From positions 38,235 to 102,234 of the forward strand of contig JAUIHP010000014.1 of assembly GCA_030431975.1 (NCBI GenBank): a stretch of 64,000 bases of DNA, in the 5' to 3' direction. The DNA comes from a bacterium (lineage in GTDB: Bacteria; Eisenbacteria; RBG-16-71-46; CAIMUX01). The notes under the pieces are model-generated. The model was not told the DNA's origin. It saw only the letters and a program-made list of their open reading frames with translations, and did not search any database. Shown here piece after piece: positions 2,497-15,892 of the stretch. The first letter of the stretch is position 1; every line of letters begins with the position of its first letter. The translations under genes and the position numbers were made by a program.

Positions 2497-2892
2497 CTAC
2501 GGTCGGGCGGGTTGGCGGGTGGCGACCAGAAGTTGTTCGATCTTCCGTGCGGTCTCCGAAGGCAATTCCGGATGACGGGCCATATCGAGCAGCGCCTGCT
2601 GCGCCGCATTCGGGTTGCCGCGTGACAGCGCGATTCGTGCCGCCATGAGGGAGGCCTCCCACAACGTCGGTTCAATCCGAGTTGCTTCCTGCAGGTGGCG
2701 CAAGGCGCGATTCGCATCCTGCTTTCGCCAGGCCAAGCGGCCCAGGGCGAAGTGCGCATAGGCATCGTTCGGATCGATATCGATGAGCCCGGCAAAAACC
2801 CGCTGCGCCGCATTGTCCTGGCCTTCCAGGATCAGTGAGTAGCCCAGTTCCCGGGCGACGGCCAGTTCGGCGTTTGTCCAGTTGTCCTTCAT
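2497..2892 (-). CDS. TPR protein, T3SS class II chaperone-like (LcrH/SycD or YscY-like)
   Basis: 131 aa, three TPR-like helical hairpins (AYAHFALGRLAWRKQDANRALRHLQEA). Size and pattern of T3SS TPR chaperones; lies downstream of sctU in the same operon. Confidence 0.5.
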   Translation of the reverse strand: MKDNWTNAELAVARELGYSLILEGQDNAAQRVFAGLIDIDPNDAYAHFALGRLAWRKQDANRALRHLQEATRIEPTLWEASLMAARIALSRGNPNAAQQALLDMARHPELPSETARKIEQLLVATRQPARP

Positions 2893-2895
2893 CGG

Positions 2896-3333
2896 TCAGC
2901 CCTTTGTTGCCATGCGCTGAAGCAGGCTTTCACGAGCGCGAAAGAGAACTTCGAGAGTGCGGACCAACTCCCCTCTGGGCCCTTCGCCCCCCGCCGGGTG
3001 ACGGGTCAGCAGTTCCCGATTGGCCGCGTGCAGTTCCGTCGCGTTCCAGCTGCGAGTTCTTCCCTCGGGAAGCGGCGGCGGGGGAAGGAAGCGATCCCCG
3101 CGTTCTGCATCGAGGGCGTTCCGGACAAGCCCGCGCCGGGAGGGGACGCGCATGTCCCGAAGGATGCGGTCCATCTGGGTCTTCAGGGACTCGAGACCGG
3201 CGACCTCCTCGTAGAGCGCCTTGGAGACCGACGTTCCGGCGTGGGATCGATTCGGCGTTGCGACATCGGAAGCAAGGTCCGGTCGCGATTGCATCCCGGT
3301 CGATCGTGCAGATGTCGGTTCGATTTTGGACAT
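2896..3333 (-). CDS. Hypothetical 145-aa protein in T3SS operon (possible SctX-like substrate partner of the adjacent TPR chaperone)
   Basis: ORF tightly packed between sctU and the TPR gene (4 bp gap); no recognisable domain. The small-protein + TPR pairing resembles yscX-yscY. Confidence 0.4.
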   Translation of the reverse strand: MSKIEPTSARSTGMQSRPDLASDVATPNRSHAGTSVSKALYEEVAGLESLKTQMDRILRDMRVPSRRGLVRNALDAERGDRFLPPPPLPEGRTRSWNATELHAANRELLTRHPAGGEGPRGELVRTLEVLFRARESLLQRMATKG

Positions 3334-3384
3334 AGGTCGTCTCCGTTCTCAATCGTTTGGGAGGGCACCGGCCCCACGTCGGCT

Positions 3385-4446
3385 TCAGCCCTGCTTCTGT
3401 TCGTAGACCCAGTTCAACACGCTCGCGACCGCGGCGTAGAGGTCCTCGGGAATGTCGTCACCCACCTCCAGTTGGATGAGGGCATGTGCCAACGGGACAC
3501 TACGCATGATCGGGATTCGGTACTGCCGCGCGACCTCGCGGATCTGTTCCGCCACGAGGCGTTGGCCTTTGGCCATGACCTGCGGCGCCCGCATCTTTCC
3601 CTTCTCGTACTTGATGGCGATGGCCAGATGGGTCGGGTTGACGATGACGACATCCGCGTTCTTCACATTCTCGACCATGCTGTGCTGCAGGATCTCGGTG
3701 TGCATCCGTTTGCGGTGACCTTTGTACTCCGGGTCGCCTTCCTGCTGCTTGTGCTCGCGTTTGACTTCGTCTTTGGACATCTTGAGCTTCTTGATGTGCT
3801 GCCACCGTTGGATGAAGACGTCGACGGCGCCAATGACGATGAAGACAAGTCCGATTCGCAGCGTGAGGTCCTTGATCAGGTCGCCGGTGAGAACTCGACT
3901 CTTCTCGAGGGAATGGCGGACCGTCAGTGCAACGTCCCGGACCTGCTCGTTGAGTACGACGTAGACGAAGACTCCGACGATGATGATCTTGAGGATCGAC
4001 TTCGCCAACTCGATGTAGGTCTGAGCCGAGAAGAACTTGTTCTTGGCTCCTTTGATCGGGTCGAGTTTGCTGAGCTGCGCCTTCATCGGCTCTCCCGTGA
4101 AGAGAGGGCCCACCTGGGCGAAGGCGACGAGTCCCCCGAAGACGAAGGCGACGGCCAGGAACGGGCCGATGACCTGAAACATCACGTCGAGCGAAGTCTT
4201 CAGAAGCTCGAACGCGGAGTCCGGTGTCAACGGAGGCGCCACGATCGACTGTCCGAGGTAGTCAACCATGTGGTCCGAGAGCAGCTGCATGGTGCGGCCG
4301 CCCTGAAAGACCAGGGTCATACTCAAGGCCAGAAACGAAAGAGCCATGGTCAGGTCCTGGCTCTTGGCGACCTGTCCCTTCTGTCGCGAATCGCGCAGTT
4401 TCTTGGGTGTGGGTTGTTCTGTTTTTTCGCCGCTGCTCTCAGCCAT
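3385..4446 (-). CDS. sctU: Type III secretion export apparatus switch protein SctU (FlhB/YscU family)
   Basis: N-terminus EKTEQPTPKKLRDSRQKGQVAKS as in FlhB/YscU; four TM helices; NPTH autocleavage motif (VIVNPTHLAIAIKYE). Confidence 0.92.
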   Translation of the reverse strand: MAESSGEKTEQPTPKKLRDSRQKGQVAKSQDLTMALSFLALSMTLVFQGGRTMQLLSDHMVDYLGQSIVAPPLTPDSAFELLKTSLDVMFQVIGPFLAVAFVFGGLVAFAQVGPLFTGEPMKAQLSKLDPIKGAKNKFFSAQTYIELAKSILKIIIVGVFVYVVLNEQVRDVALTVRHSLEKSRVLTGDLIKDLTLRIGLVFIVIGAVDVFIQRWQHIKKLKMSKDEVKREHKQQEGDPEYKGHRKRMHTEILQHSMVENVKNADVVIVNPTHLAIAIKYEKGKMRAPQVMAKGQRLVAEQIREVARQYRIPIMRSVPLAHALIQLEVGDDIPEDLYAAVASVLNWVYEQKQG

Positions 4447-14432: not shown

Positions 14433-14434
14433 CG

Positions 14435-15313
14435 TTAGCTACGCGCCGCCGCAGCCGGTCGGGGAGCGGCCGCTTCGTCGAGCTGGCGGCTGAGAGAGCG
14501 GTTGCGAAGGGTCAGGAAGATCAGCATGGCGACGAGTAGAACCGTGAAACCCGCGAGCGGATAGAAGAGGACCATCGGATCCGGTCCGGAATCCATGGCC
14601 GGGCCCGTCGTCGGGGCGACGGGTTTCAGGACGACCGTGACGTTCTCGCGATCCAGTCGCTCGATTCCGCCGGCGACCAAACTCTGGATCTGCGCGACAT
14701 CGAGCCGGGCAGCCGGCGGCAACTCTTCGTCTTCGAACCAATGTTTGACCAGGACGGACGCGGTCGGCACCGGCGTTTTCTCTCCAAGAGCGACCTCGCG
14801 AAGACGGTCACGCTGCGGAATGGAAAGGTGAACCCGGGCGTCGATGACGCTGGGCATCGCTTCGAGCGTTCGTTCGAGTTCGCCGGACTGTGCTTGAAGG
14901 AAGAGGGCGCGTTCTTCGGTTTCGGTCGGGATCATCTTCGACTTTCCGAAGAGTTCGCCGAAGCCTTGCGGAGCCGTTCGCGGGCGGTCGTTCTCGGCAA
15001 GAACGAGAAACGCGTCGCTGGCATCGGTGGGACGAACGCTGACCGACCAAAGAACATCCTGACCGGTTCCTCCCGGGGTCTTGGAAGCGGCGATGCCGTT
15101 CTGTCGAAGAAGGACGATCAAATCGACCGCGTCGCCTTCGTCCATCCCCGTCATCACGTCGACCTTCTGGCAGCCGGCGAGAAAGAGGACGGCGAAAAGA
15201 ACGAGGAAACGGCCCGAGGACCGAAGTCGAATGGCCACTGGAGAACCTCCGCAGGCAGATAGCCGGTGAATAACCGGGGTCAGGTTGAGGCCGACACGGC
15301 CCCGTAACGGCAA
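14435..15313 (-). CDS. sctJ: T3SS inner-membrane ring lipoprotein SctJ (YscJ/PrgK family)
   Basis: Lipobox (VLFAVLFLAGCQK), then the YscJ-like VDVMTGMDEGDAVDLIVLLRQNGIAAS, periplasmic ring domains and a C-terminal TM (LAGFTVLLVAMLIFLTL). 292 aa, i.e. injectisome-sized rather than FliF-sized. Confidence 0.85.
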   Translation of the reverse strand: MPLRGRVGLNLTPVIHRLSACGGSPVAIRLRSSGRFLVLFAVLFLAGCQKVDVMTGMDEGDAVDLIVLLRQNGIAASKTPGGTGQDVLWSVSVRPTDASDAFLVLAENDRPRTAPQGFGELFGKSKMIPTETEERALFLQAQSGELERTLEAMPSVIDARVHLSIPQRDRLREVALGEKTPVPTASVLVKHWFEDEELPPAARLDVAQIQSLVAGGIERLDRENVTVVLKPVAPTTGPAMDSGPDPMVLFYPLAGFTVLLVAMLIFLTLRNRSLSRQLDEAAAPRPAAAARS

Positions 15314-15361
15314 GTCCCTAGTTTAGTCCGCTTCGCCGTTTGCTGAACCCTCAATCCTTGA

Positions 15362-15892
15362 TCAGACGTTAGTCTGGATGATCGTCTTCATTCCTGAAGC
15401 GCTCTGCTCCACCGACTTACTCAGAATCTCGACACTCTGGATGATCTGGTGAGACCGGATCTGCACCGCGAGCAGCTCTTTCTGCGAAAACGACTCTCCG
15501 GAAGCGAGCTGATCGAGGAAGCCGGTCAGCTCGGAATACTCCTGTCCGATCTTGTCGAGCCGTTCGACGACACGCTGCTGCATGAGCGAGGACGGCTCAT
15601 GACCGAGCTTGGAACGAATGTCAGAATAGGTCTTGTAGGAAGCGTCGAGAGGCTGGGCGAAGAACTCGACCTGGGAGGCGCGGTCCATCCGCATGACCTT
15701 GGTTTCGAGCTCGCGTTCCATCCGAATCTTCTCGATGTGAGTCGGTTCGGGGGCTTCGAGGCCGGAGCCGTCGGCTTGCTGCTGCTGCCGCATCACGTCA
15801 TCGAACTGTTGTTCGGTGCTCTTCGGCTGCGCTTCCGCAAGCTGACTCTGAAGCTGAACCTGGGTCTGAAGTCCGGAGCTGATCTCGTTCAT
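15362..15892 (-). CDS. Candidate inner-rod protein SctI (YscI/PrgJ-like), Q-rich, C-terminal amphipathic helix
   Basis: 176 aa. Immediately upstream of sctJ, matching the yscI-yscJ order. C-terminus (…SGMKTIIQTNV) resembles needle/rod family termini. Assignment weak. Confidence 0.4.
   Translation of the reverse strand: MNEISSGLQTQVQLQSQLAEAQPKSTEQQFDDVMRQQQQADGSGLEAPEPTHIEKIRMERELETKVMRMDRASQVEFFAQPLDASYKTYSDIRSKLGHEPSSLMQQRVVERLDKIGQEYSELTGFLDQLASGESFSQKELLAVQIRSHQIIQSVEILSKSVEQSASGMKTIIQTNV

Follow-up and report, generated by a model that had tools for sequence, protein, structure and literature searches.

The sequence analysed here, hereafter the window, is the 64,000-nucleotide stretch of contig JAUIHP010000014.1 that is shown in part above, and its minus strand carries at positions 2497–15892 a gene cluster that codes for a secretion system of type III (T3SS). 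The open reading frames of the window were scanned with Pfam and NCBIfam models, and gene starts were refined by gene calls on an identical Logan contig (L001). The results showed that sctJ, sctN, sctQ, sctR, sctS, sctT and sctU are all clustered in this interval, and that each of the 13 machine genes has an intact open reading frame in which the key motifs are kept (Table 1). An initial annotation, made from the sequence without database searches, had named SctU with its NPTH motif, SctT, SctS, SctR, SctQ, SctP, SctO, SctN, SctL and the lipoprotein SctJ, and the profile searches bore out all of these. It had also described fourteen contiguous minus-strand genes; the core cluster does lie on the minus strand, but a plus-strand VapB/PIN pair and a DUF2905 gene intervene. 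A FliO gene, the pair of genes for a small protein and a TPR protein after sctU, and the VapBC pair had been overlooked.

Table 1. Features of the window, with the type III cluster and the genes inserted in it listed first (in the direction of transcription) and the flanking features after them.
Feature	Position	Strand	Evidence or remark
SctI-like inner rod/adaptor candidate, 176 aa	15362-15892	-	C-terminus very conserved
SctJ inner-membrane ring lipoprotein, 267 aa	14435-15238	-	PF01514, E 2e-22; lipobox LFLAGC
Predicted FliG-like protein, 349 aa, in the SctK/FliG position	13383-14432	-	GTG start, fixed by the conserved N-terminus
SctL/FliH stator	12739-13386	-	PF02108, E 7e-20; TIGR02499 above cut-off
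SctN ATPase	11371-12711	-	ATP-synt_ab and T3SS_ATPase_C
DUF2905 membrane protein	10987-11205		Between sctO and sctN
SctO/FliJ stalk protein	10442-10957 (171 aa, ATT start) or 10442-10804 (120 aa, canonical start)	-	YscO-like, E 1.6e-10
VapB (PSK_trans_fac) and VapC (PIN) toxin-antitoxin pair	9770-10428	+	Pfam labels from the L001 gene calls
SctP/FliK-like protein, ruler and substrate switch	8425-9462	-	Flg_hook (FliK C-terminal domain), E 8.5e-10
SctQ of the sorting platform, 477 aa, two SpoA domains	6979-8412	-	FliMN_C, E 1e-22; TIGR02551 above cut-off
FliO-like protein, 189 aa, one transmembrane helix	6444-7013	-	PF04347, E 8e-13; TIGR03500, E 5e-13
SctR/FliP	5585-6430	-	PF00813, E 8e-71; NF009438 SctR, 256 bits, above cut-off
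SctS/FliQ	5294-5566	-	PF01313, E 1e-27
SctT/FliR	4473-5291	-	PF01311, E 3e-55; start from the L001 gene call
SctU/FlhB export-gate switch	3385-4446	-	PF01312, E 8e-117; NPTH autocleavage motif at residue 270
Conserved protein, 145 aa	2896-3333	-	Without Pfam match
Small TPR protein, 131 aa	2497-2892	-	Several TPR Pfam families; last gene of the cluster
FIST-domain sensor protein and HisKA/HATPase histidine kinase	49-2286	-	Directly after the TPR gene
DcaP/porin-like protein	16714-18030		In the 14.7-kb block
MtrC/cytochrome c7-like multihaem cytochromes (three)	18056-19732, 21315-23603, 24460-25953		In the 14.7-kb block
M43 peptidase, TIGR04183 tail	26728-28527	+	Type A sorting domain of the type IX secretion system, above cut-off
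FliA/WhiG-family sigma factor	30584-31303	-	TIGR02479, E 6.5e-39, below cut-off
Cytochrome P460	32271-32801	-	Near the sigma factor gene
ASPIC/UnbV FG-GAP protein, TIGR04183 tail	35638-37512	+	Type A sorting domain, above cut-off
NHL-repeat protein, TIGR04183 tail	43851-46298	+	Type A sorting domain, above cut-off

SctU scored nearly the same with TIGR01404 (SctU, 362.6 bits) and TIGR00328 (FlhB, 350.6 bits), and SctS scored higher with the FliQ model (96.9 bits) than with the SctS model (71 bits). The ATPase exceeded the cut-off of TIGR02546 (SctN), whereas the FliI models stayed below theirs, and its best matches in a plasmid database were of the Ysc and Desulfovibrio type at 55–58% identity. 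SctJ, whose transmembrane helix is C-terminal and whose cytoplasmic tail is short, matched TIGR02544 (SctJ) with an E value of 2e-37 as against 8e-9 for FliF. Residues 278–320 of SctQ align with the SpoA domain of Escherichia coli FliM, and SctP gave a weak match to SctP of Desulfovibrio (E 5e-5). The FliO-like protein probably serves as a chaperone when the SctR/FliP gate is assembled; its gene lies between sctQ and sctR in every locus of the family to which this cluster belongs.

In the case of sctO, the conserved N-terminal 50 residues have no ATG, GTG or TTG start, and automatic calls give a protein of 120 residues. The orthologues align in frame to position 10942, and the start is likely to be the ATT at 10957, behind the ribosome-binding site GAAAGGG. 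The extended protein spans positions 14–139 of the 141-position FliJ model. The possibility that SctO is a truncated pseudogene was rejected, as the frame is open and conserved back to the ATT codon. The VapBC pair is an insertion between sctP and sctO and lies outside the machine; it is absent from this place in three relatives (L002, L007 and L009). A scan of the cluster for sigma-70 promoters and terminators gave results at chance level.

The small genes at the two ends of the cluster were more difficult to name. The TPR protein is likely to be a T3SS chaperone of class II/III type; its gene occupies the same place, after sctU and the gene following it, in L002, L004, L007, L009 and L024, and its best matches among small TPR proteins, which are weak, were encoded beside sctV in Desulfovibrio (E 5e-4) and Sinorhizobium (E 2e-3). 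In L004, L007 and L009, an orthologue of the 145-residue protein, 145–166 residues long, is encoded between sctU and the TPR gene. The 145-residue protein may be the partner or a substrate of the chaperone; Pfam and sequence searches of the PDB gave no match for it, and the PDB searches with the 349- and 176-residue proteins likewise found nothing. We do not equate the pair with YscX/YscY, as the similarity is weak and at the TPR level only. At the other end, the C-terminus of the 176-residue protein is near-invariant between Eisenbacteria and Acidobacteriota, and its last 45 residues align without gaps with YscI, MxiI and HrpB2. The Acidobacteriota orthologue matched T3SS_basalb_I (E 0.053) and needle_F (E 0.095), both below threshold; the L024 orthologue has a recorded needle_F match, and hhalign gave an E value of 0.009. 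These alignments, with weak profile support, weakly suggest an SctI-like adaptor or rod subunit, as in the candidate SctI of the initial annotation.

The gene that would correspond to K in the order I-J-K-L encodes a protein of 349 residues with scarce relatives, 29 representatives having been found in 1.84 billion proteins. When the profile of this family was compared by hhalign with E. coli FliG, the two aligned in register with an E value of 0.003, EPPALFLLAL being placed on EHPQIIATIL, and distant relatives gave repeated sub-threshold matches to the Pfam families FliG_N, FliG_M and FliG_C. The AlphaFold2 model is all-helical (predicted local distance difference test (pLDDT) 72, predicted TM-score 0.67); its top 11 Foldseek matches were all FliG, and the top four span about 320–345 columns. 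Like FliG, the protein is predicted to have three armadillo-like helical domains (N, M and C) with an EHPQ-type motif in the M domain; its gene lies between the ring gene and the counterpart of fliH, matching in length and place the fliG gene of flagellar operons. On the strength of profile alignment and predicted fold, we regard the product as a full-length FliG-like protein. SctK has been published as a novel fold without homologue (PscK, PDB 6uie). The predicted fold fits both FliG and PscK, which offers a concrete, testable origin for SctK and also hints at the way in which a reduced ring first came to bear the sorting platform.

The nearest named homologues of SctN and SctU come from metagenome-assembled genomes (MAGs) of Candidatus Eisenbacteria (the candidate phylum Eiseniibacteriota in NCBI), with identities of 74–88% for SctN and 65–75% for SctU in the closest named relatives; the identities recorded to other Eisenbacteria were 87% (SctN), 75% (SctU) and 80% (SctR). 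The host is thus a soil or sediment member of Candidatus Eisenbacteria, in line with the proposal of a non-proteobacterial, candidate-phylum organism. Candidatus Eisenbacteria share the lineage with many Acidobacteriota and with 'bacterium HR11'; the cluster is kept in all of these, usually with a gene for a FliA-like sigma factor at its head. In a relative from ENA/JGI (L007/L008) and in an Acidobacteriota MAG (L009), the order is sigma factor, SctI-like, SctJ, a protein of about 300–330 residues, SctL, SctN, SctO, SctP, SctQ, FliO, SctR, SctS, SctT, SctU, small protein and TPR protein; two Eisenbacteria genomes have the cluster in separate blocks, I-J-x-L-N and (O)-P...TPR. The best 120 SctN matches were 65–100% identical, those with names belonging to Eisenbacteria or Acidobacteriota. 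Homologues at 65–70% identity were very numerous, and the named ones were from Acidobacteriota, with one from 'bacterium HR11'. A scan of genome contigs with SctU gave only one close relative, and an apparent 88% SctU match (L045) was discarded, as it covers only the conserved 24-residue N-terminus. Public MAG annotations already name these T3SS genes. The names are inconsistent: orthologous ATPases of Acidobacteriota MAGs appear as 'flagellar protein export ATPase FliI' or as 'SctN', the annotation pipeline PGAP using both names, and SctU appears as FlhB or SctU.

In the Acidobacteriota MAG L009, the sigma factor gene ends 35 bp before the cluster. The sigma factor of the window is 73% identical to the one whose gene adjoins the SctI-like gene in Eisenbacteria HK-STAS-EISE-1, and is likely to be a dedicated regulator of FliA/WhiG type that has been displaced by 14.7 kb from the operon in this genome. 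The neighbourhood of cytochrome P460 and sigma factor genes also adjoins the T3SS in HK-STAS-EISE-1 (L011), and its occurrence in both genomes supports a shared ancestry of the whole region.

To place the cluster, neighbour-joining trees with bootstrap were built with non-flagellar references from Yersinia pCD1, Shigella, Desulfovibrio, Ralstonia and Sinorhizobium, flagellar references from E. coli, Curtobacterium, Azospirillum and Dethiosulfovibrio, and ATPases of Myxococcales and Chlamydiae taken from Dataset S1 of Abby and Rocha. These trees are distance-based with limited sampling, and their deep nodes are tentative. In the tree of concatenated SctN, SctU, SctR, SctS and SctT (1,324 columns), the classical injectisomes, the flagella and the present family formed three clades, each with 100% support, and the branches of the present family were short. 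A tree of SctV from family members gave the identical three-way pattern, the flagellar clade leaving the family out. The comparison of SctN, SctU and SctV with flagellar and non-flagellar systems that the initial annotation had recommended places the family outside both clades, each at 100% in the concatenated tree. In the SctN tree (284 columns), the family grouped with the Myxococcus system at 66% and with the Chlamydiae added at 70%, the family alone receiving 26%. The subclades were phylum-coherent, with 99–100% for Eisenbacteria and 78–98% for Acidobacteriota (98% for the main Acidobacteriota subclade in the SctN tree). Judged from these sequences, with the deep nodes tentative, the lineage branches between flagella and classical injectisomes.

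The G+C content had been put at about 68%; the measured value is about 62% (62.3% in the cluster and 61.6% in the remaining window). With its flank-like G+C content and an orthologous sigma factor gene, the T3SS cluster is not a foreign island. Since the G+C content resembles that of the flanks, the subclades follow the phyla and the family lies outside both 100% clades of the concatenated tree, the evidence favours a vertically held, deep-branching lineage over a recent transfer, these having been the two origins first considered. Recent transfer from Proteobacteria was rejected on phylogeny and G+C content, and the trees do not fit one from a known injectisome family.

The non-flagellar T3SS core, in a definition of the TXSScan type (Abby and Rocha 2012), consists of nine genes: sctC, sctJ, sctN, sctQ, sctR, sctS, sctT, sctU and sctV. 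Pfam searches of the large open reading frames of the window found no FHIPEP (SctV), secretin or SctD family, and tblastn of the window with E. coli FlhA and with SctV of the family gave no match, which agrees with the original observation that sctV, sctC and sctD are missing from the window. In 'bacterium HR11', the cluster continues after sctU with SctV and an FHA/YscD-like protein, and in another family genome (L024) with a 220-residue protein, a TPR protein and SctV; the metagenome loci L027 and L033 are arranged alike, and L031 has an FHA/YscD-like protein and SctV near a FliG-like and SctL pair. The family thus owns SctV and an SctD-like protein, and sctV is missing only from the cluster of the present lineage. 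The slot after the TPR gene, filled by sctV in relatives, is taken in the window by the FIST and histidine kinase genes, which may be a regulatory pair or merely mark a rearrangement breakpoint. The layout without sctV was found in at least five genomes, one of them from Acidobacteriota, and is therefore an old, stable arrangement; the sctV of this organism is either elsewhere or lost. When metagenomes were scanned for SctV, most of the loci found were flagellar or classical, and no SctV locus could be assigned to Eisenbacteria.

The FHA/Yop-YscD_cpl domain belongs to SctD in injectisomes. Separate proteins with this domain, resembling the cytoplasmic domain of SctD, are encoded beside sctV in L023 (12397-12518) and L031 (7351-8553); the family may therefore possess a further ring or adaptor part that is not seen in the window. 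In Acidobacteriota and HR11, it is also found at the N-terminus of SctQ, fused to the FliM/FliN-like part (L009:6161-7723, L023:4406-5911 and L024:12509-14083), so that the Acidobacteriota SctQ orthologue has FHA, FliM and FliN domains. Pfam found no FHA domain in the SctQ of the window, and alignment showed that the domain is an insertion confined to the orthologues from Acidobacteriota and HR11.

Queries with YscC and with SctC of Desulfovibrio matched only loci of the crown type (L034, L037 and L048), and no secretin was found in any family locus, including those with sctV and an SctD-like gene in the cluster. In the window, Pfam gave no match for the needle SctF, tip, translocon or gatekeeper SctW, the sole SctF-type candidate, on weak evidence, being the 176-residue SctI/F-like protein; the relatives' clusters examined contained no short needle-subunit gene, and a YopN query matched crown-type loci only. 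Because no needle, translocon or secretin was found, 'injectisome-type' and 'Ysc-like order' in the initial annotation are overstated: the system is non-flagellar and the order I-J-K-L-N-O-P-Q-R-S-T-U is present, but this order is equally flagellar, and on Yersinia pCD1 itself the I-J-K-L and N-U genes form separate blocks, N-U first.

The possibility exists that the genes belong to a classical contact-dependent injectisome that injects effectors into eukaryotic hosts and has its sctV, secretin, sctD, needle and translocon genes in other places. Chlamydiae are known to have their T3SS loci scattered in this way, the cluster is already split in some Eisenbacteria genomes, SctP and the NPTH motif of SctU imply a structure of controlled length, and the needle_F match of the L024 orthologue points the same way. 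We nevertheless consider this unlikely, as no secretin was found even in the loci with sctV and an SctD-like gene, a crown injectisome clade with 100% support leaves the family out, FliO and the FliG-like protein are kept whereas classical injectisomes have neither, and no translocon or gatekeeper homologue was detected.

E. coli FliE and FliG queries gave no match in the window, the FliF query matched the sctJ gene only, and no Pfam family of flagellar rod, hook, filament or stator (Mot) proteins was found in its large open reading frames. Searches of the metagenome loci with FlgE and MotA gave no match in family loci, nor was a flagellar FliF or FliG matched there, and for the remaining family loci the gene lists with Pfam labels likewise contained no secretin, FliF/FliG, hook or MotA. 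If the cluster were the export core of a real or recently degenerated flagellum, the rod, hook, filament and motor genes would lie elsewhere or have just been lost. Such a reading would accord with the gene order, which is the ancestral flagellar order fliE-F-G-H-I-J-K-M/N-O-P-Q-R-flhB, with the FliO, FliK-like, FliG-like and FliA-like proteins, with NCBIfam models of FlhB, FliQ and FliR that score equal to or above the Sct models, and with the FliI label that PGAP gives to many Acidobacteriota orthologues. It is made very improbable by a ring protein that is a 267-residue SctJ lipoprotein and not a FliF of about 550 residues, by FliM and FliN fused in the manner of SctQ, by the lack of rod, hook, filament and Mot genes in the window and in about ten family loci, by the 100% support with which the flagellar clade leaves the family out, and by the same reduced gene set recurring across phyla with SctN 65–88% identical. 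A true flagellum was rejected on SctJ, gene content and phylogeny.

We conclude that the window probably holds an intact cluster for a basal, non-flagellar type III export machine in which neither a secretin nor a needle is seen. Its encoded parts comprise the SctR/S/T/U export gate with FliO, the small lipoprotein ring SctJ in place of FliF, a cytoplasmic platform of the FliG-like protein, SctQ (of the FliM/FliN type with SpoA domains), SctL, the ATPase SctN and the stalk SctO, a ruler of FliK/SctP type, the SctU switch with its autocleavage motif, and the small protein with its TPR chaperone. Several findings weigh against this conclusion. To our knowledge, sctV is essential in every known T3SS, and it was found neither in the window nor in four further loci of the Eisenbacteria type, so that the system of this genome could be incomplete. 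Three disruptions of the operon make its expression uncertain: the VapBC insertion, the distance of 14.7 kb to the sigma factor gene and the stretch of only 37 bp upstream of the first gene. SctO needs a non-canonical ATT start, the FliG-like assignment draws on sequence scores below threshold and on a model of medium confidence (pLDDT 72), the grouping with Myxococcus concerns one gene in a neighbour-joining tree with 66% bootstrap, and flagellar genes may possibly lie elsewhere in the genome.

Some of these same observations could mean that the cluster is a non-functional relic in this genome, decaying after the loss of sctV and of its linkage to promoter and sigma factor: sctV is missing from the slot it fills in relatives, the operon is split, the sigma factor gene is displaced with 37 bp left upstream of the first gene, and SctO has no canonical start codon; but decay is hardly to be expected where all the machine genes are intact with their motifs, identity to other Eisenbacteria is high (see above) and the layout without sctV recurs in at least five genomes including one of Acidobacteriota. 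As to the proposed 'nanotube CORE platform' (PMC6456723), nothing in the present data bears on it.

Were the export machine functional, its working could be envisaged as follows. The FliA-like sigma factor would drive expression of the cluster. The FliG-like protein would dock on the cytoplasmic tail of SctJ, as FliG does on FliF, and join SctJ to SctQ, taking the job of SctK and SctD in injectisomes. Because relatives hold both SctV and an FHA-type SctD-like protein inside the cluster, this genome would encode the former, and probably the latter, at another place. A few early substrates would be exported first and form a short periplasmic structure, after which SctP and SctU would switch export to other substrates that, by analogy, may be released into the periplasm or passed to another envelope system. 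Export that ends in the periplasm, or handover to another envelope system, has been proposed for the T3SS* of Myxococcus.

A further-reaching interpretation, which we put forward tentatively and hold to be somewhat less than an even chance, is that the family forms a third and ancient line of type III secretion machines in soil and sediment phyla, a living descendant of the intermediate between flagellum and injectisome. In it, a FliG-type protein would couple the reduced SctJ ring to SctQ, SctK would be a shortened FliG, and no secretin would be needed for its work, which might be bacterial antagonism or predation in concert with a second envelope machine. A full-text literature search found, in the library searched, no paper linking Eisenbacteria to type III secretion and none describing a non-flagellar T3SS in Acidobacteriota.

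Outside the cluster, the ASPIC/UnbV and NHL proteins named by the initial annotation are present, and the TIGR04183-type sorting domains it had pointed out scored above cut-off in three neighbouring proteins; a secretion route of the type IX kind therefore also exists in this organism, besides the T3SS cluster. The 14.7-kb block between the T3SS operon and the FliA-like sigma factor gene (15930-30467) carries, in addition to the porin-like protein and the multihaem cytochromes of Table 1, DinB, a cytochrome b561-like protein, the M43 peptidase with its sorting domain and a PMT_2 glycosyltransferase. Its set of cytochromes, porin and cytochrome b resembles an extracellular electron-transfer module.

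Compared with the injectisomes of the Ysc and Desulfovibrio type, the present system shares the YscO-like, SctL and SctJ families and a small-protein and TPR pair near sctU/sctV that may be set beside YscX/YscY. These injectisomes have sctC, sctD, sctF, sctW and a translocon, none of which turned up here, their SctK is short (about 210 residues in Ysc), they have no FliO, and the family lies outside their clade. With the flagellar export apparatus and its C-ring, the cluster has in common the identical gene order, FliO, the C-terminal domain of FliK, a FliG-like fold, a FliA-type sigma factor and the NPTH switch. It differs in the short SctJ lipoprotein that replaces FliF, in the fusion of FliM and FliN as SctQ, in the separate clade with 100% support and in the rod, hook, filament and stator genes, none of which were found here.

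The closest parallel is the 'Myxo' non-flagellar T3SS of the Myxococcales, the needle-less T3SS* of Myxococcus xanthus (Abby and Rocha 2012, PMC3459982; Herrou et al. 2025, PMC12075869; Thiery et al. 2022, as cited in PMC10433427). The T3SS*, which has neither secretin nor needle, acts together with a Tad-like pilus when prey is lysed, and FliO inside T3SS operons is a trait of the Myxococcota T3SS (PMC12248157). The Myxococcales-type echo suspected at the outset is supported by FliO in the operon and, moderately, by the grouping of the ATPases at 66%. Both systems have SctJ, an SctI-like protein, SctQ, SctL, SctN and SctRSTU, with TPR (LcrH-like) chaperones and no secretin, needle or translocon, and both appear to take a basal place between flagella and injectisomes. 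Unlike the T3SS*, the present family occurs in Eisenbacteria, Acidobacteriota and HR11 and not in Myxococcota, and its ATPase, about 66–68% identical on conserved columns, is no closer to that of the T3SS* than to those of Chlamydia or Ysc. A full-length FliG-like protein is kept here, whereas Myxo systems have been reported without FliE and FliG (Abby and Rocha, PMC3459982). A FliA-like sigma factor heads the present family's cluster, no Tad/Kil pilus genes are near, and sctV and sctD are not in the cluster of the window. As a separate observation, a relative with a 71% identical SctU encodes between sctN and sctO a 229-residue protein with a type IV pilin-like N-terminus (GFTLVEMVVVVLVIGIL; L007:4037-4726, plus strand), which is of note because the T3SS* works with a Tad-like pilus. 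The T3SS* of the Myxococcales is the only 'intermediate' between flagellum and injectisome described so far, and a sister-like, secretin-less system is found here in at least two other phyla and in the unclassified lineage HR11. With such a system in several lineages and numerous relatives of its ATPase, the intermediate form is therefore widespread and no myxobacterial oddity.

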